This document shows positions 10,610-60,590 of a DNA stretch of 64,000 nucleotides, piece after piece. The stretch comes from Deltaproteobacteria bacterium (GTDB lineage Bacteria; Myxococcota; XYA12-FULL-58-9; JAFGEK01). How positions within the stretch are numbered: position 1 is the first letter of the stretch; every line of letters begins with the position of its first letter. The position numbers and the translations under genes are program-made. Below the pieces are notes generated by a model. That model ran no database searches, was not told where the DNA came from, and was given only the letters and a program-made list of their open reading frames with translations. The stretch spans positions 24,124 through 88,123 of the forward strand of contig JAFGEK010000219.1 in the NCBI GenBank assembly GCA_016931625.1. The letters run 5' to 3'.

Positions 10610-11431
10610 GTGACTAATTTCTTTTTATATTTTTTAACTTGGTATTTTGCCGCCACCCCGGTGACCAATCAAAATGTCACGACTTTGGCAGCTAATAATG
10701 CACGTAATAATAAGTCAACCAACTTTTTAGTAGTATTGGATGCTGGTCACGGCGGCAATCAAAGTGGTGCCCGTGGTGTATGCGGCGCTTATGAAAAAGA
10801 TGTAGTTTTAAACATAGTTTTAGAACTTAACAAATTACTAATGGCAAGTGGACGAGTTCGTACTAAACTGACACGTAATAAAGATATAAGACTAAGCCTT
10901 GAAGAACGTGTGCAAATAGCCAATCATGAAAAGGCTAATTTGTTTATTTCGGTGCATGCTAATGCTGCTCCAGGTGTTACTTCACATGGAGTAGAAACTT
11001 TTTTTGTATCACAGCGCGCTTCTGATAAACGCATTGCAAAATTAGCCCTTATTGAAAATGAAGGTAGGCGTGACTTCACAACTGCTGAAAACACCTTAGG
11101 GCTTATTCTCGATAGCTTGCGTCTGCATGCAGCACATACTGAAAGTCAACGTTTTGCCGCGTTAGTGCAACAAAGTGTCTGTTCACGCCTTAAACAACCT
11201 AATCGTGGCGTACTTCAAGCCCCTTTTTATGTTTTACGATTTGTAAATATGGCTTCAGTATTAGTTGAAGTTGGCTTTTTAAGTAATCCTAGCGAATGCC
11301 TTCGCCTAAATACGCCCAACTATCAACGCAAAATTGCTCAAGCATTAGCTGCTGCTATTTTAACTCATGTTTTCACAACTGAAGACACTAAATTAGCATC
11401 GATAATGACAAAAAATGACTCCCAAAAGTAA
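10610..11431 (+). CDS. N-acetylmuramoyl-L-alanine amidase (Amidase_3, AmiC-like)
   Basis: VVLDAGHGGNQSGA and FISVHANA zinc-ligand motifs. GTG start, with the N-terminus hydrophobic. Confidence 0.85.
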   Translation: MTNFFLYFLTWYFAATPVTNQNVTTLAANNARNNKSTNFLVVLDAGHGGNQSGARGVCGAYEKDVVLNIVLELNKLLMASGRVRTKLTRNKDIRLSLEERVQIANHEKANLFISVHANAAPGVTSHGVETFFVSQRASDKRIAKLALIENEGRRDFTTAENTLGLILDSLRLHAAHTESQRFAALVQQSVCSRLKQPNRGVLQAPFYVLRFVNMASVLVEVGFLSNPSECLRLNTPNYQRKIAQALAAAILTHVFTTEDTKLASIMTKNDSQK

Positions 11432-11543
11432 GTACTCAAAAATTTTTTTATTTCTCTTAATCACTTGTTAATTCCATCACCATAGGCTAAAGCAGCACCA
11501 TGTAGGAAAGAGACTTACAGGTCTTTTATGGAGTATGTAAAAA

Positions 11544-12224
11544 ATGCATCTATCCGTCCTAGAGGCGGCGCACGTATTAAAAATCCCTGAAAACCATGTC
11601 TATCGCCTAATCGAAGAGGGACAGCTTCCGTGCTACTGGGTAAATGATCAAGCACGGCTGAATCGTACTGAGTTGCTTGAATGGGCCACGGCTCGTCGTA
11701 TGTTTATATCTACCGAACTTTTTAACGATAGTGATAAACAAACCCAACAACTACCAATGTTAACTGATGCCCTCATGCTTGGTGGTATTCACTACCAAAT
11801 AACCGGTAGCGATCGTGAATCTGTCTTACACTCAGTAGTATCCATCTTACAATTACCTGAAGATGTTGATCGTGAAATGTTGTTACAAATTCTTCTTGCT
11901 CGCGAATCCGCAGGATCAACCGCTGTTGGCGACGGTATCGCCATACCGCATGTACGCCAACCCATAGCTGTCAATGGTGATGGTTTAACTTCAATGGCTC
12001 TATGTTTTTTGGCCTCACCAATACAGATGGGAAACAAACCCGTCGAAAAAGTGCATACATTATTCGTCATGGTCACGCCCAATGTTCGACGTCACTTGCA
12101 ACTATTAGCACGTTTAGCCACAGCTTTACGTGATGAACAATTTAAAGCTTGTGTGCTTGCCCGCCATGACCCACAATCCATCTTGCAACATACCCGCCGT
12201 CTCGATGCGATAATTACATCTTAA
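11544..12224 (+). CDS. Fusion of an excisionase/MerR-type HTH with a PTS EIIA(Ntr)-type (PTS_EIIA_2) domain; putative regulator
   Basis: The N-terminus LSVLEAAHVLKIPENHVYRLIEEGQLPCYWVN is an excisionase-family HTH. The C-terminal EIIA-2 region has GDGIAIPHVR (phosphorylatable His context). It ends 32 bp before the complex operon. Confidence 0.75.
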   Translation: MHLSVLEAAHVLKIPENHVYRLIEEGQLPCYWVNDQARLNRTELLEWATARRMFISTELFNDSDKQTQQLPMLTDALMLGGIHYQITGSDRESVLHSVVSILQLPEDVDREMLLQILLARESAGSTAVGDGIAIPHVRQPIAVNGDGLTSMALCFLASPIQMGNKPVEKVHTLFVMVTPNVRRHLQLLARLATALRDEQFKACVLARHDPQSILQHTRRLDAIITS

Positions 12225-12256: not shown

Positions 12257-14296
12257 ATGCTCGAGAACCTAGTCATTGGTAGCATTTTGCTAACTGCCAT
12301 CAGCGGTATTCCTGGGTTATTTTTTAACAAACAAAACACCATAGGCGAGCGTCTTGCAAATGCCTTAATTATCTTTGGCTCATTATTAGGCATTAGTGCC
12401 GCAGTGTTAGTATTTTTTCCGGTATCGTTTGATAATAGTTTTAATATATCTTGGCCTTGGCTTACTCATTGCAGTGCTGTTTGGCTGCACCTCGATGCTC
12501 TCACCGCAATTTTTCTTCTGCCCATATGTTTAATCGCTGCACTGGGATCAATATATGCCCGTAGTTATTGGCCGCAACAACAGCACCTGCGTGACGGTCG
12601 TAGACTGCAACTTTTTTATGGTTTGCTTTGTGCCGCGCTTATTCTCATAGTTTGTGCACGTAACACTATTGTCTTCTTGGCCGCTTGGGAAATTATGGCG
12701 TTAACCGCTTTTATGGCCTTAACCTCCCAAGATGATAAACAAGTCGTACGTGAAGCTGGTTACGTTTTTTTAGTTGCTGCTCGTTTGAGTACCCTTTGCC
12801 TTTTTGCAATGTTCACACTCTTATTCGTGGCGAGCGGCCAACTTGCATTTGCCGCACCAATAGACAGCAGCAATCAAGCTATTGCTAATACCATCTTTTT
12901 GCTGGGCGTCGCTGGCTTTGGCCTCAAAGCCGGGATAATACCGCTACATGTTTGGTTACCTGAAGCCCATGCTCGTGCCCCTAGTCATTTGTCAGCATTA
13001 TTTTCAGGGGTTTTAATTAAAGTTGGTATTTACGGGTTAGTACGCCTTGGTTCACTTTTTGCGCACCCGCCAATTTGGTGGGGTGCGCTTTTACTTGCTT
13101 TAGGAATGATTTCGGGTGTGCTTGGCGTTGCCTTTGCTATTGGTCAACACGACCTCAAACGTTTGCTTGCTTATCATAGCATTGAAAATATTGGCATCAT
13201 TTGCATGGGTCTTGGTTTAGCCTTTATCGGGCGTTCGCTTGATTCTCCGGTGCTTCTCGTTCTTGGTATTGCTGGCGCATTATTACATGTTTTAAACCAC
13301 AGTATGTTTAAAGCGCTGCTTTTTTTTGCTGCAGGTTCAGTGCTTCATCGTACTGGCACACGCAATATGGATCAACTCGGTGGGCTAACTCGACGTATGC
13401 CCTATACTGCAATTGCTTTTATCATCGGAGCTATAGCAATTTGTGGCTTACCACCACTAAACGGCTTAGTTAGCGAATTTTTAATCTATCTTGGCCTATT
13501 TCGTACTGTTGCATCACCGGCAACAACACTTTGGGCAGTTGGTGCCTGTGGAGCGCCCATTTTAGCACTAATTGGTGCTTTAGCGCTTGCTTGTTTTGTT
13601 AAAGCTTTTGGTACAGTATTTCTCGGAGAAGCACGCTCAAAATCTGCGCTTAATGCGCATGAAGCCGATAAAATCATGCTTTGGCCTATGGCAATCTTAG
13701 CTATAGGATGTATTTTTGTTGGTTTATTTCCACCGCTTATGGCCCCAATATTCAATGTAACCGCTACAATTTTTGCACCTGAATTAAAACATTCTATACC
13801 TGATTTAGCTGCACTTGCACCTCTCTCATGGCTACAGCTATTAGCCGTAATATTATGGGTTTTACTCGTAGGTGCTTTTATCACGCTGCGCCTTTTCACT
13901 CGTACCAAACAGACAATAGCCACCTCGACTAATAACCCAGCCATTGCTTCACTCTTGACTACTGTACCTACCTGGGATTGCGGCTATGCGGCACCAAGTG
14001 CGCGTATGCAGTATACCAGTTCATCATTAGCAAAAACTATCGTAGGCTTTTTTAAATGGGCTTTATGGCCAAAAGAACATTTACCTCATGTTCATGGCGT
14101 TTTTGCACGTCCGAGTTCATTTCATAGCGATATCCCTGATACTATTTTAATACGTTTTATTACGCCAACACTGCGTCGTCTGGCTCGCTGTTCTCGACAT
14201 TTACGATGGATTCAGTCAGGAAGTTCGCAAGCATATATACTTGGTATATTAATAGCACTTATCGTTTTTGCTTGCATAGCATTGATTAGGCATTAA
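12257..14296 (+). CDS. HyfB/NuoL-like proton-pumping antiporter-type membrane subunit
   Basis: 679 aa and polytopic. It carries Mrp/NuoL-family motifs (WEIMALTAF, GLKAGIIPLHVWLPEAHA.AP, LLAYHSIENIG). Confidence 0.9.
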   Translation: MLENLVIGSILLTAISGIPGLFFNKQNTIGERLANALIIFGSLLGISAAVLVFFPVSFDNSFNISWPWLTHCSAVWLHLDALTAIFLLPICLIAALGSIYARSYWPQQQHLRDGRRLQLFYGLLCAALILIVCARNTIVFLAAWEIMALTAFMALTSQDDKQVVREAGYVFLVAARLSTLCLFAMFTLLFVASGQLAFAAPIDSSNQAIANTIFLLGVAGFGLKAGIIPLHVWLPEAHARAPSHLSALFSGVLIKVGIYGLVRLGSLFAHPPIWWGALLLALGMISGVLGVAFAIGQHDLKRLLAYHSIENIGIICMGLGLAFIGRSLDSPVLLVLGIAGALLHVLNHSMFKALLFFAAGSVLHRTGTRNMDQLGGLTRRMPYTAIAFIIGAIAICGLPPLNGLVSEFLIYLGLFRTVASPATTLWAVGACGAPILALIGALALACFVKAFGTVFLGEARSKSALNAHEADKIMLWPMAILAIGCIFVGLFPPLMAPIFNVTATIFAPELKHSIPDLAALAPLSWLQLLAVILWVLLVGAFITLRLFTRTKQTIATSTNNPAIASLLTTVPTWDCGYAAPSARMQYTSSSLAKTIVGFFKWALWPKEHLPHVHGVFARPSSFHSDIPDTILIRFITPTLRRLARCSRHLRWIQSGSSQAYILGILIALIVFACIALIRH

Positions 14297-14312
14297 GCCC
14301 GAGGACATTGTC

Positions 14313-15224
14313 GTGACTCTTATTAATATTGCCATTCACACAACGCTTATATTGAGTATGCCTTTGCTATTGCTTGGTGTCATTGGTAAAACCAAGGCGG
14401 CTTTTGCTGGCTGCAACGGACCACCCCTCTGGCAACCCTACTTCGATGTAATCAAACTTTTACGCAAAGATTCTATATTTAGTAATTCCACTACCTGGGT
14501 CTTTCGTGCTGGTCCGGTGGTAAGCTTAGTTACGGCGCTGCTAGCATTGTCATTGGTACCACTTGGCGGCCATCCTGCCCTTATTTCTTTTGCCGGAGAT
14601 TTTGTACTCTTCGCCTATCTTTTAGGCTTAGGTCGTTTTTTTACCATCGCTGCTGCCCTTGATACCGGCTCAGCCTTTGAAGGTATGGGCTCTGCACGTG
14701 AAGCCGCTTTTTCTTGTCTGACTGAACCCGCACTATTCTTAGGACTTGTGGTCTTAGTACGCATCTCTTCATCACTATCATTGTCGCACATGCTTGGCAG
14801 TTATTTAAATAATGCCTGGCATCAATATGGAGCTTCGTTAGTGCTAGTGGTAGTCAGCCTGTTTATTATTCTGTTAGCTGAAAACTCGCGTATTCCGTTT
14901 GATGACCCTAATACACATTTAGAATTAACTATGATTCATGAGGTCATGGTACTTGATCACAGTGGCCCCGCGCTTGGCTTCATCCAATATGGTGCGGCAT
15001 TAAAGCTTTTTGTAATGGCAGCAATAATCGTACGCCTAATTATACCCTTTAATACAGGTATATTTAGTAGCTGGGGTATTTTCATTGTCAGCATGATAGG
15101 ACTTGCAATTGGTATCGGTGTTATCGAATCAATAATGGCCCGGCTACGTCTCACTCAAGTCCCCATATTATTAATTGCCGCATGTCTGTTATCTGCATTC
15201 GGTATTATCTTAATGGCAAGGTAA
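14313..15224 (+). CDS. HyfC/HycD/NuoH-like membrane subunit
   Basis: 303 aa and polytopic. NuoH-like ENSRIPFD and E.EL motif region (AENSRIPFDDPNTHLELTMIHE). GTG start. Confidence 0.85.
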   Translation: MTLINIAIHTTLILSMPLLLLGVIGKTKAAFAGCNGPPLWQPYFDVIKLLRKDSIFSNSTTWVFRAGPVVSLVTALLALSLVPLGGHPALISFAGDFVLFAYLLGLGRFFTIAAALDTGSAFEGMGSAREAAFSCLTEPALFLGLVVLVRISSSLSLSHMLGSYLNNAWHQYGASLVLVVVSLFIILLAENSRIPFDDPNTHLELTMIHEVMVLDHSGPALGFIQYGAALKLFVMAAIIVRLIIPFNTGIFSSWGIFIVSMIGLAIGIGVIESIMARLRLTQVPILLIAACLLSAFGIILMAR

Positions 15225-15232
15225 AACTATAA

Positions 15233-15874
15233 ATGAATAGCATGGTCGATGCTCTAATCGTTGTTGTGCTTCTGCTTAATTTTTTTCTGCTTGGCACTAG
15301 CCGTTTGCGTGCTGTTATCAACGCTTCGGCAGCTCAAGGTGTCTTGTTGGGCATACTTATGTTTTTTATGCACGTAGACTTTGGTATTAAAGCCGTGCTT
15401 ATCATAGCCGCTACGATTATTCTTAAAGGTGTGTTTATTCCTAGTATGTTAGTACGAGCTATGCGTGATGCTGCTATTCGTCGTGAAATCGAGCCGATTA
15501 TTGGTTTTTTACCATCATTATTGTTAGGTGCTCTTGGTACCGGTGCTTCACTATTATTTGCTAAAACCCTGCCACTAGCACCACAACATGAAGGCTCGCT
15601 TTTAGTACCTGCATCGCTAGCTACTGTATTCACGGGTTTTATAATTCTTACCACACGTCGCAAAGCCATCAGTCAAACTGTGGGCTATCTTGTACTTGAA
15701 AATGGTATTTTCATTATGGGCTTAACCCTTATCTTGGCTATGCCTTTTATGATTGAGATGGGTGTTTTGCTCGACCTCTTTGTCTGTATCTTCATTATGG
15801 GCATCATCATAAACCACATTAATCGTGAATTTTCATCGTTAGATACAGCGCGCCTAAGCACGCTTAAGGAGTAA
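15233..15874 (+). CDS. HyfE-like small membrane subunit (NuoK-related)
   Basis: 213 aa and polytopic. The position and size match HyfE of hydrogenase-4-type operons. Confidence 0.75.
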   Translation: MNSMVDALIVVVLLLNFFLLGTSRLRAVINASAAQGVLLGILMFFMHVDFGIKAVLIIAATIILKGVFIPSMLVRAMRDAAIRREIEPIIGFLPSLLLGALGTGASLLFAKTLPLAPQHEGSLLVPASLATVFTGFIILTTRRKAISQTVGYLVLENGIFIMGLTLILAMPFMIEMGVLLDLFVCIFIMGIIINHINREFSSLDTARLSTLKE

Positions 15875-15877
15875 AAA

Positions 15878-17311
15878 ATGCTGTTGGCGCTTATCATCGC
15901 ACCTTTGAGCTTCGCTGTAATTACATTCTTTATACCGCATCAACGTTTACGCGCTATTATGCTACCAATTGGTGGTAGCGCGCATCTTATTTTGGTGACA
16001 ATTACATTAATATCTCCGCAAATTGCCAAACCCTCACCTTGGCTTGCCATTGATCCCCTCAACCGTTTAGTTTTAGGTTTATTAAGTTTTTTATTTTTTA
16101 TCTGTTCGCTATACACTCCCGGCTATTTGCGCCTACGCGCTAATCGGCCCAATCGCGTTTTTTGTAGTGCTTTATTCGCCTTTTTGGCCACTATGAGCTT
16201 AGCAGTTTTGGCGCAACATTTAGGATTAATGTGGGTAGCAATCGAAGCCTGTACTTTAAGTCTAGCACCTCTAATATATTTTAATCATAATCCGCGTTCT
16301 ATTGAAGCTACCTGGAAATATTTACTTATAGGCTCTGTTGGTATTGCATTAGCTTTGCTCGGTTCATTTTTTCTATCTTATGCTGCCCTTGCTACCGGCA
16401 AACCTGTGTCGCTTTTCTTTAACGAGCTAGTAAGCGATGGTGTTCACTTATCACGCCCATGGTTGCGTGCCGCCTTTATTCTCTTATTCGTTGGCTATGG
16501 TACTAAAATGGGTTTGGCGCCTATGCACTCCTGGAAACCTGATGCTTATGGTGAAGCACCCGGTTTAGTAGGTGCCTTGTTAGCTGGTGGCCTAACCAGT
16601 TGTGCGTTTTTAGCTGTACTTAGGTTTTTTCGCATTTGCCTAGCCGCTGGCGAAACTGCCTTTGCACAACAAATCATGATCATAAGCGGCCTTGCCTCAA
16701 TGGCGATTGCCGGTATCTTTATGATTGGACAGCGTGACTTCAAACGCTTGCTTGCCTATTCGAGTGTCGAACATATGGGTATTTTGGTATTGGGTGTTGG
16801 TATCGGAGGGCTTGCAACCTTTGGCTCGTTATTACACTTGATTAACAACGGGCTTACTAAAGCAGTGCTCTTTCTAGCTGCAGGCAATATCCATCGCGCT
16901 TATCAAAGCAAGCTTGTCAATGAAGTAAGTGGTGCTATGCGTCGCTTACCTATAAGCGGCGCTTTATTATTAGCAGGTTTTTTTGCTATTACCGGCTCTC
17001 CGCCTTTTGGTCCTTTTATTAGTGAACTTACTATATTACGAGCCGCAATTGCCAATAATCAGATCCTCATCACCGTTCTCTTCTTGCTGTTTCTTCTGGT
17101 GGTGTTTATGGGTATGGGCACCCAAATACTCGCAGTCGTACAAGGCGAACCATCAAGAGCGGCTACTAATACCAATATAAAAGACCATTTCTTAACTGTA
17201 GCACCAATAATTATTTGTTGTGCTTTGGTGTTATTACTTGGAATTTATCTACCTACACCACTAGTTAATGCATTACAGGTAGCTGCGAATTTTCTTGAGA
17301 AAACCCTATGA
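15878..17311 (+). CDS. HyfF/NuoN/NuoM-like antiporter-type membrane subunit
   Basis: 477 aa. Motifs GTKMGLAPMHSWKPDAYGEAP and LLAYSSVEHMG are typical of Mrp/NuoMN-family subunits. Confidence 0.9.
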   Translation: MLLALIIAPLSFAVITFFIPHQRLRAIMLPIGGSAHLILVTITLISPQIAKPSPWLAIDPLNRLVLGLLSFLFFICSLYTPGYLRLRANRPNRVFCSALFAFLATMSLAVLAQHLGLMWVAIEACTLSLAPLIYFNHNPRSIEATWKYLLIGSVGIALALLGSFFLSYAALATGKPVSLFFNELVSDGVHLSRPWLRAAFILLFVGYGTKMGLAPMHSWKPDAYGEAPGLVGALLAGGLTSCAFLAVLRFFRICLAAGETAFAQQIMIISGLASMAIAGIFMIGQRDFKRLLAYSSVEHMGILVLGVGIGGLATFGSLLHLINNGLTKAVLFLAAGNIHRAYQSKLVNEVSGAMRRLPISGALLLAGFFAITGSPPFGPFISELTILRAAIANNQILITVLFLLFLLVVFMGMGTQILAVVQGEPSRAATNTNIKDHFLTVAPIIICCALVLLLGIYLPTPLVNALQVAANFLEKTL

Positions 17312-18825
17312 TCACGAGTTCATTCTTATCATTACATAACGCGCGTGCAGTACCTTTAGCGCATATACCACTTTTAACGTTACTAGAGTTACAGCAAGCT
17401 ATAGTAACGGCAGCAAATCGCAATCGCCGTGTTGTTTGTCTTTTTACCACTTATATTGATAATACTCTTGAACTCTGGGTAATACTTGCATCTGATATCG
17501 ATGGTATTCTCGAAGTGGCGCGAGCCCCTTTAAGCGATGATGGGTTTGCTTCTATTGCTACCCAATGTCCTGAAATACAATTATTCGAACGTGAAATTGC
17601 CGAACAGTATGGGCTTAATATTATAGGACATCCCTTACCAAAACCGGTACGCTTTCATACCTCATGGCGTGAAGGTCATGTAGCTTGGGGGCATACAACC
17701 TCTGCGAACATCGGAGTTATGGACTACTACCAGGTTGACGGCCATGAAGTCCACGAGGTAGCTGTCGGACCGGTTCATGCTGGCGTAATTGAACCTGGAC
17801 ATTTTCGTTTTCAATGTCATGGTGAACAAGTATTTCACCTAGAAATTTCATTAGGCTACCAACATCGTGGTATTGAGCAAGCTCTACTGCAAGGGCCAAA
17901 TCTGCGCTCTATTCATTATATGGAAACCTTAGCTGGTGATACATCCATCGGTCATACTAACGCTTATTGCCAGGCGGTAGAAAGTTTAAGCGGGTCTAGT
18001 ATTTCAGCACGTGCCCATGTCTTACGGGCGATTGCACTTGAGCTTGAACGCTTAGCAAACCATACCGGTGACCTTGGTGCTTTAGCTCATGATGTTGGCT
18101 ATTTACCAACAGCATCATATTGTGGTCGTTTGCGTGGTGACTTTTTAAACCTAACTGCATTACTATGTGGTAGTCGTTTTGGGCGTGGTATAGTACGACC
18201 AGGTGGTGTTACTTTTGATCTTGAACCCATCCGCGCTGTTGAATTTATAACTCGTCTTGATGCTATTTACCGTGATGTAAAAGAAGCCGTGCGACTGTTA
18301 TGGACTACCACCTCAGTACAAGCACGCTTTGAAGATACCGGTCGCTTAAGTACAGACTTAGCTCGTAATCTTGGTTTAGTAGGCTTAGCTGCACGCGCTT
18401 GTGGCCTGCAACGTGACGTACGTAAAAATCACCCCGCTGGTATTTATCAATTTGTACACATACCAATATCAACTTGGCATAGTGGCGATGTTTTTGCACG
18501 TGCCTTTCTACGTTGGCTTGAAATTGAACGTGCCGTAAAATTTATTCGTGATCAAGTCCATGAACTTCCGCATGGCGACATCCAAATCACACCTGCGCCT
18601 TTGCAATCTAAGCATCTTTGCGTTTCACTGGTTGAAGGTTGGCGAGGCGAAATTTGCCACGTAGCTATTACTGATGGCCATGGACGCTTTAGCGCTTATA
18701 AAGTTGTAGACCCTTCTTTTCATAATTGGATTGGTCTAGCTATGGCGCTGCGCAATCAACCTATCTCTGATTTTCCGTTATGTAATAAAAGCTTTAACCT
18801 CTCATACTGCGGGCACGACCTGTAA
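17308..18825 (+). CDS. HycE/HyfG-like NuoC-NuoD fusion 'large subunit' lacking the [NiFe] cysteine ligands
   Basis: NuoC-like FEREIAEQYG...GHP, then GPVHAGVIEPGHFRFQCHGEQVFHLEISLGYQHRGIE. The expected RxCGxCxxxH reads ETLAGDTSIGH. The expected C-terminal DPCxxC reads NLSYCG, and the protein ends 3 residues later. Confidence 0.9.
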   Translation: MITSSFLSLHNARAVPLAHIPLLTLLELQQAIVTAANRNRRVVCLFTTYIDNTLELWVILASDIDGILEVARAPLSDDGFASIATQCPEIQLFEREIAEQYGLNIIGHPLPKPVRFHTSWREGHVAWGHTTSANIGVMDYYQVDGHEVHEVAVGPVHAGVIEPGHFRFQCHGEQVFHLEISLGYQHRGIEQALLQGPNLRSIHYMETLAGDTSIGHTNAYCQAVESLSGSSISARAHVLRAIALELERLANHTGDLGALAHDVGYLPTASYCGRLRGDFLNLTALLCGSRFGRGIVRPGGVTFDLEPIRAVEFITRLDAIYRDVKEAVRLLWTTTSVQARFEDTGRLSTDLARNLGLVGLAARACGLQRDVRKNHPAGIYQFVHIPISTWHSGDVFARAFLRWLEIERAVKFIRDQVHELPHGDIQITPAPLQSKHLCVSLVEGWRGEICHVAITDGHGRFSAYKVVDPSFHNWIGLAMALRNQPISDFPLCNKSFNLSYCGHDL

Positions 18826-18852
18826 AAAAAAAATCTAAGGAGCCTTAAACCA

Positions 18853-19647
18853 ATGCTTAATGTTTTGTTAACCCGCTTACGCCAAGGTCATCGTACTGCA
18901 TCCTATCCTAAAAGCGAACCTATATTGCCTGATCGCTTTCGTGGCCTGCTGCAAATTGATGCTAATAAATGTCTGACGCTACGAAACCCACAAAAGCAAA
19001 ACGATTGTGTTAAGTGTGCAACCATCTGCCCTACTAATGCAATCAGAGTTATTGCAGAACAAGGACCGCAGATAGATCTTGGCAAATGTATTTTCTGTGG
19101 TGATTGCGTTCATGCTTGCCCCACCCAAGCTGTCACTCATAGCTCTATTTACCCTATGTCTACACGGCAACGTAGCGATCTCAATATATCACATAACAAA
19201 ACTTTAGCTTTAGCAAAGCCACTGGCACATGAATTACGCCGTATATTTAAGAGATCTTTGCACTTACGCCAAGTCAGCGCCGGTGGTTGTAATGCCTGTG
19301 AATCTGACATTAACGTGCTTAGCACCTTAACCTTTGACCTTGGGCGTTTTGGCATTAAAATGGTAGCCTCGCCTCGTCATGCCGATGGCTTAATCATTAC
19401 AGGCCCGGTCACCGAAAATATGAAACTAGCTCTTGAAAAAACTTATGCCGCCGTAGCTAACCCAAAAATAGTAATCGCCGTTGGCGCCTGCGCTATCTCA
19501 GGTGGCTTATTTGCAGGCCACACTCAAACTCATAACGGAATCGATAATCTATTACCAGTAGATTTATATATTCCGGGTTGTCCGCCACATCCATACACCA
19601 TTCTCGATGGTTTGCTACGCTTGCTTGGACGTCTGCCAAAACAATAG
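18853..19647 (+). CDS. Fusion of a HycF-like 2x[4Fe-4S] ferredoxin module with a HycG/NuoB-like small subunit
   Basis: The N-terminal half has C-x11-CVKCATICP and the canonical CIFCGDCVHACP. The C-terminal half has the NuoB/HycG motifs GGCNACE, SPRHADGLIITGPVT, GACAISGG and PGCPP. Confidence 0.9.
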   Translation: MLNVLLTRLRQGHRTASYPKSEPILPDRFRGLLQIDANKCLTLRNPQKQNDCVKCATICPTNAIRVIAEQGPQIDLGKCIFCGDCVHACPTQAVTHSSIYPMSTRQRSDLNISHNKTLALAKPLAHELRRIFKRSLHLRQVSAGGCNACESDINVLSTLTFDLGRFGIKMVASPRHADGLIITGPVTENMKLALEKTYAAVANPKIVIAVGACAISGGLFAGHTQTHNGIDNLLPVDLYIPGCPPHPYTILDGLLRLLGRLPKQ

Positions 19648-19702: not shown

Positions 19703-20125
19703 TTACGGACAGCAACCAGTTGAATATTTGTTACTGCATTTACTACAAGTCTTTTGACATCCATCTTCTAAAGTACACTGTTTACAATCAACCGATGCAT
19801 ATGAACATTCGATTGCGTTTGCGGTACCAATCAATTTTTTGCACGTCGCACCATAAGCAGGTTTGCGCCAATCGCCGACTTTTACCGAGCATCCGCAAGA
19901 ACCAAAAGATTCCCATTCACCGTTGTTACAAATCTCAATGATAGTGCTTCCTGTTGCATAGCATTTATAGGATCCAGCTGGTGCTGAACCACAAGATTTA
20001 CCATGTGCCGAAACGTTATTACCATCAATACTATCGTCTTCTTCATCACCACATGACACAATGGCTAGCGCTAATATTGCGAAAACAATAAGATTAAAAC
20101 TGAACCAATTTTTTTTAACCCACAT
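19703..20125 (-). CDS. Small Cys-rich lipoprotein (hypothetical)
   Basis: 140 aa. Signal peptide with lipobox (LAIVSC). About 16 Cys in the mature part. AGGAG-like RBS (ttaggagaaataaatATG on the minus strand). Confidence 0.6.
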   Translation of the reverse strand: MWVKKNWFSFNLIVFAILALAIVSCGDEEDDSIDGNNVSAHGKSCGSAPAGSYKCYATGSTIIEICNNGEWESFGSCGCSVKVGDWRKPAYGATCKKLIGTANAIECSYASVDCKQCTLEDGCQKTCSKCSNKYSTGCCP

Positions 20126-23337: not shown

Positions 23338-23586
23338 ATGTCCGATAAAACAATCGTTACCATTCGTGGGCAAACATCTATTCCAGCTCGGTTGCGGCGC
23401 GAATATCGCATTGAGCCTGGTACCGAATTAGTATGGGAAGCAGCTGGTGAACATGAATGGCGTGTGTATATCGAACGTAAAACAGAGGTCCTACCAAATC
23501 CTACAGGCATGCTTGGTTTTGCACGCCAATTTCGCAAAACACGCTCTACAGAACAATGGATGCGCGAACTTCGAGAAGGCGAGTGA
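23338..23586 (+). CDS. AbrB/MazE/SpoVT-type antitoxin
   Basis: 82 aa. The N-terminal swapped-hairpin motif is VTIRGQTSIPARLRREYRIEPGTELVWE. It is directly followed by a PIN toxin gene. Confidence 0.8.
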   Translation: MSDKTIVTIRGQTSIPARLRREYRIEPGTELVWEAAGEHEWRVYIERKTEVLPNPTGMLGFARQFRKTRSTEQWMRELREGE

Positions 23587-23588
23587 TA

Positions 23589-24002
23589 ATGCTAGTAGTC
23601 GATACTTGTGTAATAATTGATATTGCTGATGCTGACCCGACATATGGCACATTATCAGCGCAGTGCTTAGAAGCGCATCTTAATCAAGGGTTAACAATTT
23701 CACCTATTTCTTATGTAGAACTTGCTCCCGTTTTTGACAATTCTACTCGCCTTTTGGATGAATTTCTTGATGGTGTTGGTATAGAAAAAAATGAGCAATT
23801 TTCCATCGCTGACCGATATGTCGCTTTTAACGCATGGGCTCGCCATATCATTGCCAAACGAACCAAAGTTACACATAAACGCCCAGTAGCCGATGCTCTA
23901 ATCGGTGCTTTAGCAATACGCCTTGACGGTATCATTACTCGCAATGGTAATGACTTTCGTTCATTTTATCCCAAACTTTTGGTTATCGATCCAAGTCATT
24001 GA
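23589..24002 (+). CDS. vapC: PIN-domain toxin (VapC family)
   Basis: MLVVDTCVIIDI (first acidic PIN residue) and ITRNGNDF at the C-terminus. The ATG lies 2 nt after the antitoxin stop. Confidence 0.85.
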   Translation: MLVVDTCVIIDIADADPTYGTLSAQCLEAHLNQGLTISPISYVELAPVFDNSTRLLDEFLDGVGIEKNEQFSIADRYVAFNAWARHIIAKRTKVTHKRPVADALIGALAIRLDGIITRNGNDFRSFYPKLLVIDPSH

Positions 24003-27429: not shown

Positions 27430-27858
27430 TTATATTAGAGGGTTAAGCACTTGCATACCATCAAAGCGACTAAAATCACGGTCGCAAGTGCATAAAATGG
27501 CGCCATGTTCTATGGCAAGCGCGGCTAAATGAGCATCTGGTATGAGATTACCGTTGGCTTGACCATCTTGTATAAGCTTTTTAAAAATTTGCCAATGGCG
27601 ATTAGTCGGATGCAAATAATCAACCATTGGCCTCGCAAACCAACTCTCAACATGTTTAGCAGCATCAGCAATTAAAAAAGGCTTGTGCAATAAGCGGGGA
27701 TGAGTACTTATTCGTAAAAAAGCTAATACAGTTGACCATGCTAAACGTATTTGTCGGTCATTTGATAAACAATCTTCCCACCAATGACACGCTACTTTAT
27801 GAAAAGGCGAAATGCTATCATACACGTATAAAATAATATTAGCATCTACTAAATACAT
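27430..27858 (-). CDS. vapC: PIN-domain toxin (VapC family)
   Basis: MYLVDANIILY...IPDAHLAALAIEHGAILCTCDRDFSRF. It is preceded by an antitoxin gene with a 2-nt gap. Confidence 0.9.
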   Translation of the reverse strand: MYLVDANIILYVYDSISPFHKVACHWWEDCLSNDRQIRLAWSTVLAFLRISTHPRLLHKPFLIADAAKHVESWFARPMVDYLHPTNRHWQIFKKLIQDGQANGNLIPDAHLAALAIEHGAILCTCDRDFSRFDGMQVLNPLI

Positions 27859-29514: not shown

Positions 29515-32337
29515 ATGTCGCCTATTGAACCTCGTAATTTATCAAACAAATTTCTTTCTGTACAGCAATGGACGCAACTAACTATAGCCAATGCTGCTGC
29601 TACCCTGCAAAGTAACCTTAAAAATGGGATCAGCTCTAACCAAGCCAGTGAACGCCAAAAGCATTACGGCTTAAACACCTTGCAAGAAAAAGGCAACAAG
29701 TCGCCTTTGCGTGTAATATTAGATCAGTTCGCCAATACTTTAGTCATCGTTCTCATTATCGCCGCCGTGATTTCAGCCGTTGCTGGCAGTCTTAAAGATG
29801 CTATCGCCATTGTTGCCATTGTTACTCTCAATGCTGTACTTGGCTTCATTCAAGAAATTAGAGCCGAACGGGCCATAGCCGCGCTACGCCAGTTAGCTAT
29901 ACCTAAAACACGGGTGCGACGCGATGGTATTGTTGTTGAAATCTCTTCAAGCGAATTAGTCCCTGGTGATATTGTTTTGCTTGAAGCTGGTAATCTGGTG
30001 CCTGCAGACGGCCGAATAATTGAATCTGCCAGTATGCGTATTGCCGAAGCTATGCTTACCGGGGAGTCAGAACCTATTGAAAAACAAACTGAAACTATAC
30101 CAGGCAAAAATGCCTTAGCGCTTGGTGATCAAGTCAATATGGCTTTTATGGGCACTAGCGTTACTTTTGGCCGAGGGCAAATATTAGTTACCGCAACAGG
30201 AATGAATACTGAACTTGGCAAGGTTGCTAATCTAATTCAAAATGTTGGACAAGTTATTACTCCGCTACAACATCGTCTCAATAGATTAGGGCGCATTTTA
30301 GCAATCGCGGCATTTTGTGTAGTTGCAGTTATTTTTATTTTCGGCTTACTGTTTGGTCACGATTGGAAATTGATGTTTATGACTGCAGTAAGTATGGCTG
30401 TTGCTGTAATACCCGAGGGTCTCCCAGCAGTTGTTACTATTGCTTTGGCACTTGGGGCTCAACGAATGTTACATCGAAATGCACTAATACGACGCTTACC
30501 TGCAGTTGAAACATTGGGTTCAGTTAGTGTTATATGTTCAGACAAAACTGGTACCCTTACTGAAAATCGTATGAAGGTAAGTGTGCTAGATCTCGCTGGG
30601 CATCGAATTGATATCTCTGAAGAACTAAAACATCGCCAGCCCATAACTATAGCCAATAAGAAAACCTCAACACTTATTAATGATGAACCATCTCTTGCCC
30701 TATTATTAATGAGTGGCAGCTTATGTAATGATGCTACGCTGCAAATTGATCGCGGCAGACCAGGCCATTATCGTGCTGTTGGTGATCCAACTGAAGGTGC
30801 CTTGGTTATAGCAGCAGCACATTTTAACTTACTTCGCGATCAACTTGATCTTGATTTCCCTCGTATCAATGAAGCGCCTTTTGACTCAGAACGTAAACGC
30901 ATGAGCACCATGCATAGTATTGTTAATCCATCAGCTTGGTTTTCGACCAATACTCTAAATCATAACAGTAAGTTCGTAGTATTTACCAAAGGCGCCGTTG
31001 ATAGTCTGCTTACTGTATGTTCTCATGTCTTATATGAAAACCAGGTGGTGCATTTAGATGATGCTTGGCGAAATAAAATTACTGCTACTAATAATGAACT
31101 TGCACGAGATGGTATACGAGTTCTTGGTATTGCATATCGATTAGCTGCAAATGAAGAATCCGATAAAAAGCTTACGGCAACGCAGCTTGAGCGCAATTTA
31201 ATATTTATTGGTCTGGTTGGTATGCTCGACCCACCACGTAGCGAAGTAAAACAAGCTGTGGCTACTTGCCAAAGCGCTGGTATTCGCCCCGTAATGATAA
31301 CTGGTGACCATCCCGTTACTGCGCGTCGTATTGCTGCTGATTTAAATATTTTAGGTACCGGACAAGTTATTACCGGCCCCGAATTATTAGGCATCTCACC
31401 GGCACAGCTTGATAAATTAGTAAATCAAGTATCGGTATATGCTCGTGTCGCTCCCGAACAAAAATTACGTATTGTAGAAGCTCTACAAAGACAGGGGCAT
31501 GTTGTCGCTATGACTGGTGATGGCGTTAACGATGCTCCAGCTTTGCGCCGCGCCGATATTGGAGTAGCGATGGGTATTACTGGTACTGATGTCGCTAAAG
31601 AAGCCGCAGCAATGGTATTAGTTGATGATAACTTTGCCACTATAGTTGCCGCAGTTGAAGAAGGTCGTTCTATTAACGATAATATTCGTAGGTTTCTAAA
31701 ATTCTCGCTTGCTGGCAATCTTGCCAAGCTATTATTAGTATTTGTTGGACCACTTTTAGGTATGCCCCTGCCTTTAACTCCATTTCAAATTCTTTGGCTT
31801 AACTTAGTCACTGATGGTGTACTAGGTTTAGGTATTGGGGTCGAACCCTCCGAACCTGATGTTATGCAACGTAAGCCACAAAAATCCTCCGAAGGTATTT
31901 TAGCTCATGGTTTAGGCATACAAATTATTTGGCAAGGTTTGCTAATGGGAATAGTTAGTATTGCTGTCGGTTGGTGGGCTTTTAGTACCAAACAACCACA
32001 ATGGCAAACTCTCGTGCTCACCACCGTAGTTCTACTGCAAATATTTCAAGCACACGCTAGTCGTTCTTCGCAACAAAGTGTTTTTAAACAAAATCCATTT
32101 TCAAATAAGCCATTGTTAGGTGCAACTTTATTACTTATAATTTTACAAGCCGCAGTGATCTATATTTCACCTTTACATAATATCTTTGCCACTTTATCTA
32201 TGTCCGCAAAACAAGTTGGCATTTCATTTCTTGCAGGACTAGTTGTGCTGATTGTAGTAGAAATATTTAAAAGTCTTATCAATTATAGAAAAATAAAGAA
32301 AAAATCTAATAATTTCCTGAATGCTGCTATTGAGTAA
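29515..32337 (+). CDS. Cation-transporting P-type ATPase, type IIA (SERCA/Ca2+-ATPase-like)
   Basis: Motifs TGES, PEGLPAV (M4), CSDKTGTLT, MITGDH and GDGVNDAPAL. 940 aa with Cation_ATPase N- and C-terminal regions. Confidence 0.93.
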   Translation: MSPIEPRNLSNKFLSVQQWTQLTIANAAATLQSNLKNGISSNQASERQKHYGLNTLQEKGNKSPLRVILDQFANTLVIVLIIAAVISAVAGSLKDAIAIVAIVTLNAVLGFIQEIRAERAIAALRQLAIPKTRVRRDGIVVEISSSELVPGDIVLLEAGNLVPADGRIIESASMRIAEAMLTGESEPIEKQTETIPGKNALALGDQVNMAFMGTSVTFGRGQILVTATGMNTELGKVANLIQNVGQVITPLQHRLNRLGRILAIAAFCVVAVIFIFGLLFGHDWKLMFMTAVSMAVAVIPEGLPAVVTIALALGAQRMLHRNALIRRLPAVETLGSVSVICSDKTGTLTENRMKVSVLDLAGHRIDISEELKHRQPITIANKKTSTLINDEPSLALLLMSGSLCNDATLQIDRGRPGHYRAVGDPTEGALVIAAAHFNLLRDQLDLDFPRINEAPFDSERKRMSTMHSIVNPSAWFSTNTLNHNSKFVVFTKGAVDSLLTVCSHVLYENQVVHLDDAWRNKITATNNELARDGIRVLGIAYRLAANEESDKKLTATQLERNLIFIGLVGMLDPPRSEVKQAVATCQSAGIRPVMITGDHPVTARRIAADLNILGTGQVITGPELLGISPAQLDKLVNQVSVYARVAPEQKLRIVEALQRQGHVVAMTGDGVNDAPALRRADIGVAMGITGTDVAKEAAAMVLVDDNFATIVAAVEEGRSINDNIRRFLKFSLAGNLAKLLLVFVGPLLGMPLPLTPFQILWLNLVTDGVLGLGIGVEPSEPDVMQRKPQKSSEGILAHGLGIQIIWQGLLMGIVSIAVGWWAFSTKQPQWQTLVLTTVVLLQIFQAHASRSSQQSVFKQNPFSNKPLLGATLLLIILQAAVIYISPLHNIFATLSMSAKQVGISFLAGLVVLIVVEIFKSLINYRKIKKKSNNFLNAAIE

Positions 32338-32382: not shown

Positions 32383-33558
32383 ATGCTGACTCAAGTATGG
32401 TTTAAAAACTACAAAGGTCTCCGTGATATTAAGCTTAATTTAGGCAGATTTAATGTCCTAGTCGGACCAAATGCTTGTGGTAAAACCTCTGTACTTGATG
32501 CCATTCGACAATTATCAATGGTTACATATAGGGATCCCTCTTTAGTATTTAATGGTTTATGGGATAAACGTGTTCTTTACAATCAAACTGCAAAGTCAAA
32601 TACCATTTCTATTGGTGCTATCGGTGAAATGTTCAATAATGATATAAAATCAAACATAAAAGTTGAAGTTACTATTGATGTTGCCGCAAAACCACGTCCA
32701 TTGCGTAAAGATGGCAATATAGATGGCCCTGATGGTGCTTTTAGTGTAGAAGCGGAGATTAATGATAAACCTCTAAATATCCCTAAAGGTCATCAAATTA
32801 ATTGGGAATCTGCAGCTCATCCATTAGTCGAAGCTTTAAATTCTTCATATTTAAGACTTGATTATTTTAAACTTGCTGAACCAACATACTCAGATAGTAT
32901 TATTCCTCAGTTAGAAGCTGGTGGTTTTGGTCTTGCTACAGTATTAAATAATATGCAAGCAAGTAACCCATCTGAATTTTCACAACTTATAGAAGATGTA
33001 TGTTCAGTTGTACCTATAATAACATCAATTAGAACAACTAGAGTCCCTTTAAAAATAACCCGTCCACAAACTATTACTATTAATGGTCAAACTATAACTA
33101 ATGAAATTAAAGAAGATGTAATCGGGCATCAAATATTACTCGATACTCAGTATGCCAAAAATATCCCTCCAAGTGGTATAAGCGAAGGTACTCTAATTGT
33201 ACTTGGTATTCTTACTGAATTACATTCACAACCTTATGCAAAATTATTATTGCTTGATGATATTGAGCATGGCCTACATCCTAAAGCACAAAAAAATTTA
33301 ATTGACCTATTACGGATTATACTTAATAAAAATTCTGATCTGCAAATAATCGCGACCTCTCATTCACCCTATCTTATAGACTCTCTTGAGCCTAGCGAAG
33401 TAATACTTTTTGATATTGGTGATGAAGGAGAAAGTATTGCTAAGCGTTTAATTGATCATCCAGATCATAAACATTGGCTTGAAACTATGACACCTGGTGA
33501 ATTTTGGAGTTTTGCTGGTGAATCATGGGTAAAAGGTAAACAAGATAAGGATAAATAA
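32383..33558 (+). CDS. ABC/AAA_21-type ATPase (OLD/AriA-like ATPase component)
   Basis: Walker A GPNACGKTS, signature-like GISEGT, Walker B LLLLDDIEHGLHP and H-loop ATSHSP. GAGGAG RBS. Confidence 0.8.
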   Translation: MLTQVWFKNYKGLRDIKLNLGRFNVLVGPNACGKTSVLDAIRQLSMVTYRDPSLVFNGLWDKRVLYNQTAKSNTISIGAIGEMFNNDIKSNIKVEVTIDVAAKPRPLRKDGNIDGPDGAFSVEAEINDKPLNIPKGHQINWESAAHPLVEALNSSYLRLDYFKLAEPTYSDSIIPQLEAGGFGLATVLNNMQASNPSEFSQLIEDVCSVVPIITSIRTTRVPLKITRPQTITINGQTITNEIKEDVIGHQILLDTQYAKNIPPSGISEGTLIVLGILTELHSQPYAKLLLLDDIEHGLHPKAQKNLIDLLRIILNKNSDLQIIATSHSPYLIDSLEPSEVILFDIGDEGESIAKRLIDHPDHKHWLETMTPGEFWSFAGESWVKGKQDKDK

Positions 33559-33560
33559 AA

Positions 33561-34325
33561 ATGAATGGGGGAATTTTTTTAAAATTCGGACTCGTTTGTG
33601 AAGGCAAAGGTGATGCAAGAACGATACCTTTAATTGTGTGGAGAGTTCTTTGTCATCAATTTGATTACCTTACTGATTATGATCCCTCATGCATTTCATG
33701 GCGCGGCCTTTCATCAAATAAAAATTATCTTCCTTGGGCACAAGTAAAAAGGATTTTTAAACTATCTAACTTAAAAATACATGGTAATTTTTCTGGTACT
33801 AGATCTACTGAATTTGTCAGTGCCCGTAAAGCATTGCTACTAATGCAAAAGGCTCATCATTCTGAGCCTATAGATCTTGTCTTTCTTATACGCGATGCTG
33901 ACAAACTACCAGAGCAAAGATATGATGCATTAATTAATGCTTGTAATTCTTTTAAGTATCCCTTTTTCGTTGCTGTAGGTGTACCAATTGCCAAACGTGA
34001 ATGTTGGGTTTTAGCTACTATTACCATTGAAATTGAAGATTTCGATTCACAATTGAAAACGAAAATAGCACAATTAGAAAAGGACCTTGGATTCAATCCT
34101 ATTTTTAATTCACATCGTCTAAATGCTTCAGAGCCTAATGCCAAACGAAGTGCTAAGCGAGTCTTAAACCTATTAACAGATGATAATATTGCCCTTGAAG
34201 ATACATGGATTAGTTCTGCGACACCTGAAATCTATATTAATCGAGGTATTAAAAATGGCCTCGCAATGTTTGTTCAAAATATTAAGAAACAACTGAGTCA
34301 ATTATATAAAAAAAGAAAAATATGA
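33561..34325 (+). CDS. Putative TOPRIM-like partner protein (DUF4276/DUF4435-like), function unknown
   Basis: Its ATG is 2 nt after the ATPase stop. The motifs GLVCEGKGD (E), LIRDADK (DxD) and AKRECWVLA (E) appear in the order expected for a Toprim fold. This assignment comes from motifs only. Confidence 0.45.
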   Translation: MNGGIFLKFGLVCEGKGDARTIPLIVWRVLCHQFDYLTDYDPSCISWRGLSSNKNYLPWAQVKRIFKLSNLKIHGNFSGTRSTEFVSARKALLLMQKAHHSEPIDLVFLIRDADKLPEQRYDALINACNSFKYPFFVAVGVPIAKRECWVLATITIEIEDFDSQLKTKIAQLEKDLGFNPIFNSHRLNASEPNAKRSAKRVLNLLTDDNIALEDTWISSATPEIYINRGIKNGLAMFVQNIKKQLSQLYKKRKI

Positions 34326-59223: not shown

Positions 59224-59643
59224 TTATTGGTTAGTAACAAATCCCTCACTGAAAGCTGCATCAGCTAATCGTTTATCAAAAGTATGAAAAACTCGACCAG
59301 TTGGTTCACCAGCCCATACTAAAGCAGCTGCTAACTGTAAGGCATCAGCCGCTTTTAAGCTGTGCGTACATAATAACCGTACGGCTAAAGGTTTAACTTT
59401 TTCAACATCAATTACCATACGACATGAAGCTATGAGTTCATCGGCTCGTTTAGTTACATGCATTAATTGTTGCATATCAACAATACCTTCGCGATATCGC
59501 CGCTGCAAGGCCGAGATAATTTCTATTGGGGTTAAAGTCCAAACAACAATAGCTGCATCTTCATGCAACCATGATTTTGTTTTAATCGTAAATTTTTCTT
59601 TTATTAACAAAGGAACCAATGCTGATGTATCCCAAAACCTCAC
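59224..59643 (-). CDS. vapC: PIN-domain toxin (VapC family)
   Basis: MRFWDTSALVPLL ... SLKAADALQLAAAL ... FHTFDKRL. It overlaps the antitoxin gene by 4 bp. Confidence 0.88.
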   Translation of the reverse strand: MRFWDTSALVPLLIKEKFTIKTKSWLHEDAAIVVWTLTPIEIISALQRRYREGIVDMQQLMHVTKRADELIASCRMVIDVEKVKPLAVRLLCTHSLKAADALQLAAALVWAGEPTGRVFHTFDKRLADAAFSEGFVTNQ

Positions 59644-60431: not shown

Positions 60432-60513
60432 TGCGTTACCTACAATCTTCATAAGGCAGTGTATGTTTGCAAGTGGCCTCATTGTGGACCAACTTTCACC
60501 TACATTCAACCAT

Positions 60514-60528
60514 GCAACAACAATACCA
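60514..60528 (-). promoter_or_regulatory. Sigma-54-type -24/-12 promoter upstream of pilin paralog 1
   Basis: The minus strand reads TGGTAT-tgttg-TTGCA (consensus TGGCAC-N5-TTGCW), ~83 nt upstream of the ATG. Confidence 0.6.
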
Positions 60529-60590
60529 AAAAATTAAATATCTCGAACACGTAAATTCAACAAATTAAGCCACCATACGCCTTGAAATAC

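Follow-up and report, generated by a model that had tools for sequence, protein, structure and literature searches.

Complexes of the Ehr class (for energy-converting hydrogenase-related) are membrane complexes like those of the group 4 hydrogenases, with a large subunit devoid of the [NiFe]-binding CxxC motifs (PMC6349859; PMC10284858; PMC10432482). Their function is unknown and they have been placed near group 4f or 4a (PMC6349859, PMC10284858, PMC7894505, PMC10432482), in one of these studies next to group 4f (PMC10284858). Members have been reported from Geobacter (GSU0739-45), Margulisbacteria and Saganbacteria, comammox Nitrospira and ammonia-oxidising archaea (PMC6349859, PMC10284858, PMC7894505, PMC10432482), and EhrA-1, EhrC, EhrL and EhrS have been named in G. 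sulfurreducens (PMC7894505). Here we analysed a 64,000-nucleotide (nt) stretch of contig JAFGEK010000219.1 of a Deltaproteobacteria bacterium (from here on, the window), which carries a seven-gene operon. At the level of the class, this operon is probably best explained as encoding an Ehr-type membrane complex of an uncultured Myxococcota-like bacterium. Its genes are the following (aa, amino acids):

11544-12224, + strand: protein with a helix-turn-helix domain and a PtsN-like type-2 enzyme IIA domain of the phosphotransferase system (PTS), hereafter HTH-EIIA, 226 aa (Pfam PTS_EIIA_2 6.2e-20, HTH_17 7.7e-10)
12257-14296, + strand: HyfB/HycC/NuoL-like antiporter-type membrane subunit (EhrA-like), 679 aa (NF005086, HycC)
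14313-15224, + strand: HyfC/HycD/NuoH-like membrane subunit (EhrB-like), 303 aa (Pfam NADHdh 3.4e-36)
15233-15874, + strand: HyfE-like membrane subunit (EhrC-like), 213 aa (NF008556 1.1e-19)
15878-17311, + strand: HyfF/NuoN-like antiporter-type membrane subunit (EhrD-like), 477 aa (NF005044 2.4e-98, Proton_antipo_M 2.8e-48)
17308-18825, + strand: NuoC-NuoD/HycE-like large subunit without the [NiFe] cysteines (EhrL-like), 505 aa (Complex1_49kDa and Complex1_30kDa)
18853-19647, + strand: fusion of a NuoI/HycF-like ferredoxin module and a NuoB/HycG-like module (EhrS-like), 264 aa (Oxidored_q6 3.7e-30, Fer4_7)

Families were assigned with Pfam and NCBIfam profiles, and structural relatives were searched with phmmer/HMMER against the sequences of the Protein Data Bank (PDB). 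The six open reading frames (ORFs) at 12257-19647 all lie on the + strand and are separated by 16, 8, 3, −4 and 27 nt, the negative value being a 4-nt overlap of the HyfF-like gene with the gene of the large subunit. Because of the common strand and these short distances we consider them to form one operon. A preliminary description of this DNA, made from the sequence alone, had proposed six co-directional, tightly spaced genes with these subunit types, which the ORFs and the profile matches bear out; its gene count holds for those six and falls short of the unit itself, which comprises seven genes with the HTH-EIIA gene at 11544-12224 included. Two antisense ORFs of 152 aa (13486-13944, − strand) and 111 aa (15334-15669, − strand) lie within the HyfB-like and HyfE-like genes and are most likely spurious.

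The HyfB-like subunit matched NF005086 at 1e-165, with a score of 552.9 against an equivalog cutoff of 667; the HyfE-like subunit matched NF008556 (hydrogenase-4 membrane subunit) over positions 2-212 of 216, with 71.2 against 136, and the HyfF-like subunit reached 330.3 against the cutoff of 610 of NF005044. The large subunit matched Pfam Complex1_49kDa at 2e-34 and scored 187.8 on the NuoD equivalog, whose cutoff is 360, and the fusion subunit gave NCBIfam matches to NuoB and NuoI. Since every equivalog score lay under its curated cutoff, the proteins of the operon are relatives, not members, of the Hyf and Nuo families. The HyfE-like subunit had no match in Pfam or in the PDB.

The [NiFe] ligand positions of the large subunit

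The top PDB match of the large subunit was HycE of Escherichia coli (7z0s_E, 1.9e-41 by phmmer). In the alignment, the L1 stretch ETLAGDTSIGH (residues 206-216, nt 17923-17955) lies under DRVCGICGFAH of HycE, with Ala209 and Thr212 in the two cysteine columns and the Gly and His of the motif kept; at L2, SFNLSY lies under SLDPCY, the cysteine being replaced by Ser499. In the ungapped alignment that we extended by our own reading past the end of the HMMER alignment, the second L2 cysteine column holds Gly502, with a shifted Cys501 beside it. The large subunit thus reads T-L-A-G-D-T-S-I-G-H where the group 4 L1 motif is R-x-C-G-x-C-x-x-x-H, and N-L-S-Y-C-G where the L2 motif is D-P-C-x-x-C. These are the ligand losses claimed in the preliminary description, for which the alignment with HycE had been set beforehand as a possible refutation; no cysteine appeared in any of the L1 and L2 ligand columns. 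In the extended alignment the protein ends in H-D-L-stop, three residues past Gly502 and opposite Arg537 of HycE, which we take to be the cleavage site of HycI. As had been proposed, the large subunit has no C-terminal peptide for a HycI-type maturation endopeptidase, a peptide that occurs in Hyc/Hyf but not in all group 4 enzymes.

The large subunit retains EPGHFRF and LGYQHRGIE, the scaffold motifs that had also been pointed out earlier. Neither hyp nor hycI nor formate dehydrogenase (FDH) genes turned up, as had been claimed, in a Pfam scan of the 64-kb window, which covered the operon ORFs and all 46 other ORFs that have at least 120 aa and neither lie inside nor run antisense to a longer one. 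An AlphaFold2 (AF2) model of the large subunit (mean predicted local distance difference test, pLDDT, of 70.6) gave HycE (7z0s_E) as the first Foldseek match at 1.8e-20, in the order HycE, NuoCD of E. coli and MbhL. We are almost certain that the large subunit cannot bind [NiFe] and that the complex is not a hydrogenase. By our own reading, Glu162 would correspond to the proton-transfer Glu of the hydrogenases; together with Asp211 and His216 it is a candidate acid/base residue.

The pocket that replaces the four [NiFe] cysteines is strongly conserved as Ala/Ser-Gly-Asp-Thr/Ser ... Ser-Tyr-x-Gly. A word-indexed protein search with the large subunit returned at least 8000 proteins at E ≤ 1e-10, and we analysed the best 120, which share 61-74% identity with it. 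Both CxxC motifs were replaced in all of these 120 best homologues, which come from several phyla: the L1 replacement E-[TAVE]-x-[ASTV]-G-D-[TSM]-x-x-G-H was present in 120 of 120, and the C-terminal end was exactly CNKSFNLSYCGHDL in 104 of them. An alignment of 33 diverse members showed E162, P163, G164, H165, F166, R167, G210, D211 and H216 to be invariant, as were N497-Y500, G502, D504 and L505. Moreover, an exhaustive search of representatives of clusters at 50% identity gave 6061 relatives at E ≤ 1e-3; among the best 150 of these representatives, the cysteines were missing from nearly all of the 103 full-length sequences, and the consensus motifs E-x-x-[A/S]-G-D-[S/T]-x-x-x-H and, at the C-terminus, N-K-S-F-N-L-S-Y-[C/S/A]-G-x-D-L were held to ~35% identity. 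Because the substitute motifs are kept across the homologues and the cluster representatives, we conclude that this clade is both large and old, and that purifying selection acts on it precisely at the remodelled positions, of which the new Asp211 is a family hallmark. Cys501 varies (C/S/A) in the wider family and is therefore not an essential ligand; a new cysteine-based metal site was considered and rejected on account of the same variation.

Real CGxC...H and CYSC motifs were found in only three of the 103 full-length sequences (P0228, P0232 and P0267; 35-39% identity). These are the closest bona fide four-cysteine relatives that we found, with P0232 coming from the planctomycetote 'Ca. Wujingus', and their group 4f label is our own inference, not the result of a classifier. 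The stretch GPxHAGIIEPGHFRF and the C-terminal context FPLxNKSFxL...DL/DR are common to them and to the window family; the four-cysteine relatives read ERxCGxCxxSH and LCYSCxDR where the window family reads ETxAGDTxxGH and LSYCGHDL. Another eight representatives (P0135, P0142, P0153, P0179, P0181, P0186, P0187 and P0193; ~41-46% identity) have a cysteine at the first L1 position (E-x-x-C-G-D-S...) with the other three gone, and may record steps by which the NiFe site was lost. The closest homologues of the large subunit are from Myxococcota, in agreement with vertical inheritance. In a collection of species-representative genomes, 392 matching stretches were confirmed.

Fe-S chain, membrane arm and relation to known complexes

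The fusion subunit combines a 2x[4Fe-4S] module (approximately residues 1-115) with a NuoB/HycG-like module for the proximal cluster (approximately residues 120-264). All four NuoB-type cysteines (GGCNACE, GACAISGG and GCPP), which the preliminary description had listed as kept, aligned with those of MbhJ and HycG. Their arrangement is the hydrogenase-type CxxC, unlike the tandem CC of the complex I small subunit. All 12 Fe-S cysteines of the fusion subunit are kept across related loci, and the three [4Fe-4S] binding sites are intact. The window protein has an 8-residue insertion in its first ferredoxin motif (residues 40-52), which reads C-x11-C-x2-C-x3-CP where the family has C-x3-C-x2-C-x3-CP.

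Among solved structures, the small subunit matched MbhJ (7.6e-33) and HycG (2.7e-32), and the HyfB-like subunit matched HycC (7z0s_C, 3.3e-79). The NuoH-like subunit gave 1.6e-29 with HycD and 7.9e-27 with MbhM, against ~5e-11 with ND1 and 2.3e-11 with MbsM; for the large subunit the match to HycE was followed by MbhL (7.7e-34), against 2.8e-32 for Nqo4 and 1.2e-16 for MbsL. Judged by these matches, each subunit with a solved relative is closest to formate hydrogenlyase (FHL) or Mbh and not to complex I, which refines the earlier placement of the complex between group 4 hydrogenases and complex I: its Ehr identity stands, and its subunits are markedly closer to FHL and Mbh. The motifs WEIMAL, LKAG and FKALLF of the HyfB-like subunit fall within conserved blocks of the HycC alignment, and by our own assignment they would carry the Glu of transmembrane helix (TM) 5, the Lys of TM7 and the Lys of TM12 of antiporter-type subunits.

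The features that define Ehr complexes and that we tested were all present. The large subunit is homologous to the group 4 large subunit and to NuoD, both of its CxxC motifs are gone, the NuoB-like small subunit keeps the proximal [4Fe-4S] cysteines, and a membrane arm of NuoL/HyfB-, NuoH-, HyfE- and NuoN/HyfF-like subunits is encoded in one operon. For this reason the Ehr classification, already suggested in the preliminary description, stands, and the operon of the window is a typical member of this already described class. The Ehr complex of G. sulfurreducens (EhrA-1/A-2/B/C/D/L/S, GSU0739-45) has a matching list of subunits, in a comparison of composition and not of sequence; it has two NuoL/HyfB-like genes (EhrA-1/A-2), whereas the window has one HyfB-like gene.

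E. coli Hyc/Hyf (group 4a, PDB 7Z0S) is the top solved match for all subunits except the small one, for which MbhJ is slightly better, and the HyfE-like one, which has none. The gene order of the window is like hyfB-C-E-F-G-(H)I, and the NuoC-NuoD fusion is common to both. Unlike Hyc/Hyf, the window complex is without the four NiFe cysteines and the C-terminal maturation peptide, has neither HycB/FdhH partners nor, in its vicinity, hyp or hycI genes, and has the counterparts of HyfH and HyfI fused.

Complex I/NDH-1 (NuoB, C, D, H, I, L, M, N) is built of homologous modules, is also cysteine-less at the former NiFe site, and, like Ehr, is conceived as having its redox site where NuoD, NuoB and NuoH meet, with coupling to antiporter-like subunits. 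In Nqo4 of Thermus thermophilus the quinone-ligating residues are presumably Tyr87 and His38. In the ungapped HMMER alignment to 2fug_4, which compares sequences only, the large subunit differs in having Gly210 in the Tyr column and a hydrophobic residue in the His column. NuoA, NuoJ, NuoK and NuoE/F/G were not found in the operon or in the 64-kb window with Pfam and NCBIfam.

The MBS/MBX complex of Pyrococcus (a membrane-bound sulfane reductase, PDB 6U8Y) offers a precedent for a descendant of a group 4 hydrogenase with lost NiFe ligands, and it reduces a different substrate via the region of the proximal Fe-S cluster. It is much more distant (MbsL 1.2e-16, MbsM 2.3e-11) and does not qualify as a close relative. 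MBS has a larger Mrp-type membrane arm, against four membrane subunits in the window, and some of its cysteines are retained.

The upstream HTH-EIIA gene and the neighbourhood of the operon

We fetched 80 genome loci whose large-subunit proteins share 58-66% identity with that of the window; their sources include Myxococcota, Planctomycetota, Verrucomicrobiota, Lentisphaerota, Kiritimatiellia, Ignavibacteria, Zixibacteria and Binatia. The order (HyfB'-)HyfB-C-E-F-G-HI was held in nearly all 80; two HyfB paralogues were present in 33 of the 53 evaluable loci and one, as in the window, in 20. When all flanking ORFs of these loci were clustered, no conserved formate dehydrogenase, NuoEFG, PFOR, HycB or hyp gene appeared among the neighbours, and the only widely conserved neighbour was the HTH-EIIA gene.

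In the window this gene ends 32 nt 5' of the HyfB-like gene. Its product aligned with PtsN structures and matched the phospho-His motif GDGIAIPH (His136), whose conservation among the window protein and 52 operon-linked homologues is 90% or higher. In 52-53 genome loci (~52 of the 54 informative ones) it is the gene directly 5' of the first HyfB-like one, and in several of them the two ORFs overlap or abut (e.g. L029, L037, L054, L062); it is clearly absent only from L004 and L064, and the remaining loci end upstream. For a reverse test we took the 80 best metagenomic loci with HTH-EIIA relatives (42-51% identity) and counted as informative those with at least 400 nt downstream: a HyfB-like gene followed immediately in 65 of 66. 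Over 102 loci, the distance between the two genes had a median of ~39 nt and was never above 300 nt. The HTH-EIIA gene is co-inherited with the operon, and its product is probably the operon-linked regulator, or possibly a regulatory subunit.

The EIIA type-2 fold and the phosphorylatable His (G-x-G-I-A-I-P-H) are common to this protein and to PtsN/EIIA(Ntr). Unlike PtsN, it is not single-domain but has an N-terminal HTH_17 DNA-binding domain, it reaches only 49.2 bits on the PtsN equivalog TIGR01419 (cutoff 138.7), and it is encoded with the Ehr genes, whereas PtsN is encoded in the rpoN operon. The Pfam scan found no EI, HPr or NPr genes in the 64-kb window. No σ54 promoter (TGGCAC-N5-TTGCW) matched in 11431-11544, the total count being at chance level, and scans for σ70 promoters and terminators gave results at or under the shuffled expectation. 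The Ehr literature that we consulted (including PMC6349859, PMC10284858, PMC7894505 and PMC10432482) makes no mention of an operon-linked HTH-EIIA gene, and a link between EIIA or the PTS and Ehr was not found in the literature searched, a negative that does not prove the link to be unreported.

In some loci, two or three paralogues of the HTH-EIIA gene stand in tandem or divergent arrangement 5' of the Ehr genes (L001:1424-2209 on the − strand, L010:390-2991, L025:1324-2966, L027:1524-3010 and L056:1224-2900), where the window has one. In a metagenome-assembled genome of Pirellulaceae (L071:1825-4886) the HTH-EIIA gene stands directly 5' of the large and small subunit genes with no membrane genes between, and this is a rearranged or split locus. 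Other neighbours, read from sequence and not from Pfam, are sporadic: σ54 activators in 13 of the 80 loci (L007:3-1193, L003:496-1950, L072:12498-15619 and others) and sensor histidine kinases in 8. A SulP-like transporter (SulP/STAS, likewise read from sequence) adjoins the Ehr operon in 8 loci, mostly of Planctomycetota (L015, L027, L078, L019, L050, L022, L071 and L006; e.g. L050:429-2180 and L006:12524-14617). This adjacency may reflect synteny within a lineage, or it may point to a connection with the transport of anions (sulfate or bicarbonate).

The DnaB encoded in the window has its best matches among proteins of uncultured Myxococcota or 'Deltaproteobacteria' metagenome-assembled genomes, at 73-75% identity for those with a named source and at up to 88% for the others. 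The window has a G+C content of ~41%, and its other genes include those for cytochrome c maturation, PilA pilins of the Myxococcus type and a lipid A acyltransferase, a gene content and composition that fit a Gram-negative respiratory bacterium. Convergent to the end of the operon, at 19703-20125 on the − strand, lies a gene for a protein of 140 aa that is rich in cysteine, has what looks like a signal or lipoprotein N-terminus and gave no match in Pfam or NCBIfam. Farther along there are an apparent toxin-antitoxin pair (overlapping ORFs of 82 and 148 aa at 23338-24002, recognised from the translations only) and two more PIN-domain genes by Pfam (27430-27858 and 59224-59643). A P-type cation ATPase (29515-32337) adjoins an AAA_21/AAA_15 (AbiEii/OLD-like) ATPase gene that is followed by that of a 254-aa protein without a family match (32383-34325); the latter two may be a defence gene pair. 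At 59991-63102 on the − strand the gene of a Wzy_C (O-antigen ligase-like) protein of 635 aa lies between two genes for type IV pilins of the PilA type, an arrangement suggestive of pilin glycosylation.

Possible reaction of the complex and alternative explanations

In the Ehr-type complex, electrons from a soluble low-potential donor, most plausibly ferredoxin, would enter at the NuoI-like module, by analogy with Ech and Mbh, and three Fe-S clusters would carry them to the remodelled pocket between the large, small and NuoH-like subunits. There, among Asp211, Thr212, Ser499, Tyr500, His216 and Glu162, an acceptor that is not H+ would be reduced and protonated. The HyfB- and HyfF-like subunits would translocate ions in coupling to this reaction or, in the reverse direction, the membrane potential would drive the reduction of ferredoxin. 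The phosphorylation state of EIIA would set the expression of the operon, and possibly the activity of the complex, and such control would link it to carbon, nitrogen or energy sensing of the PTS(Ntr) type. That the acceptor is a small molecule other than menaquinone seems to us unlikely. We also regard as speculative the fuller proposal in which the substitute pocket beside the proximal [4Fe-4S] cluster is a new metal-free catalytic or ligand site, serving a substrate that is neither H+ nor a canonical quinone or a reverse flow to ferredoxin, with the HTH-EIIA protein as regulatory subunit and transcription factor that couples the complex to PTS phosphorylation.

Several points weigh against this picture of an Ehr-type complex with a working pocket. 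Ferredoxin as the donor is suggested only by the missing partner genes and by the analogy with Ech and Mbh, and the higher abundance of Ehr on formate in Geobacter (PMC7894505) hints at a formate link unseen in the neighbourhoods here. The pocket could be merely filled in, without a catalytic acceptor site, and the variable Cys501 leaves no obvious candidate for a new metal site. It is also possible that the HTH-EIIA protein acts as a transcription factor only, with no mechanistic role in the complex. Finally, of the structural check suggested in the preliminary description, the fold of the large subunit came out as expected for a HycE relative, but the model is unreliable exactly at the pocket: pLDDT fell below 50 at residues 153-184, 337-393 and 479-505 (the pocket loops and the C-terminus), and the AF2 model therefore supports no statement on cavity geometry.

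A more specific version of the same explanation names the acceptor, with the complex as an ion-pumping ferredoxin:menaquinone oxidoreductase that hands low-potential electrons to the respiratory chain and in which the loss of the NiFe site gave rise to a quinone site, as on the way to complex I, NDH-1 and Fpo. The host lineages are mostly respiratory and quinone-containing (Myxococcota, Planctomycetota, Verrucomicrobiota), CcmF and CcmH, for the maturation of cytochrome c, are encoded in the window, genes for a partner or for handling an acceptor are not conserved, and the proximal cluster and the NuoH-like subunit are intact, all of which agrees with menaquinone as acceptor. However, the columns of Tyr87 and His38 of Nqo4 hold Gly210 and a hydrophobic residue, the operon has no homologues of NuoA/ND3 or NuoJ, the matches of the NuoH- and NuoD-like subunits to HycD/MbhM and HycE are far stronger than those to complex I, and the small subunit has the hydrogenase-type CxxC instead of the tandem CC of complex I. 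We consider this version possible, with considerable doubt.

The operon might instead encode a redox- or PTS-gated, Mrp-like cation/proton antiporter, in which the Fe-S chain has ceased to turn over a substrate, senses the redox state of ferredoxin and, together with EIIA, gates ion exchange by the antiporter-like subunits. The small and polar residues of the pocket, which include no clear metal or quinone ligands, would suit such a role, as would the motifs read as retained charged residues of the antiporter type and the dedicated EIIA(Ntr)-like partner; in other bacteria EIIA(Ntr) proteins regulate K+ transporters by direct binding. Nevertheless, the constraint on the 12 Fe-S cysteines and on the pocket motifs exceeds the apparent needs of a sensor, and we know of no precedent for an antiporter gated in this way. 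We consider this reading quite unlikely.

It is improbable, too, that the electrons come from a formate dehydrogenase encoded elsewhere, in an FDH-Ehr complex analogous to FHL. Such a complex has been put forward in Margulisbacteria and Saganbacteria (PMC6349859), every Ehr subunit of G. sulfurreducens was present at higher abundance in cells grown on formate (PMC7894505), and FHL is the closest solved relative. Yet neither a formate dehydrogenase nor a HycB-like connector was found in the 64-kb window or among the conserved neighbours of the 80 genome loci, and without a NiFe site the oxidation of formate cannot end in H2.

We judge it highly improbable that the complex is still a hydrogenase whose metal centre is held by the shifted Cys501 and other residues. 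The scaffold is kept, including EPGHFRF, HRGIE and His216, and one cysteine does lie beside the L2 position; but none of the four canonical ligand columns holds a cysteine, Cys501 is replaced by Ser or Ala in many members of the family, and there is no C-terminal maturation extension and no hyp gene in the window. Moreover, the four-cysteine relatives P0228, P0232 and P0267 differ from the window family precisely at the ligand columns. A decaying, non-functional remnant of a Hyf operon, which the loss of all the catalytic ligands might suggest, was rejected as effectively refuted because the replacement motifs are conserved in homologues across several phyla, where they are invariant at 58-74% identity, in addition to which the six ORFs are intact and tightly spaced and there are more than 6000 relatives in the clustered library (E ≤ 1e-3), nearly all of the full-length ones among the best 150 being without the cysteines.

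In public databases, cysteine-less homologues of the large subunit go under the names 'hydrogenase', 'NADH-quinone oxidoreductase subunit C' and 'Ni,Fe-hydrogenase III large subunit'; the misannotation is systematic and could inflate the H2 metabolism inferred from metagenome surveys. Ehr complexes are among the most widespread relatives of complex I without a known reaction. What our analysis adds is the breadth and strength of the conservation of the substitute motifs, the affinity to FHL and Mbh over complex I, and the linkage to the HTH-EIIA gene. Substitute motifs as conserved as a catalytic site, in a complex without a conserved partner dehydrogenase, narrow the functional hypotheses, and the linked HTH-EIIA gene provides a practical handle on the long-standing question of Ehr function. 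If the proposal of a metal-free site coupled to the PTS were true, it would amount to a widespread way of converting energy, so far uncharacterised, in Myxococcota, the Planctomycetes-Verrucomicrobia-Chlamydiae superphylum and other phyla.

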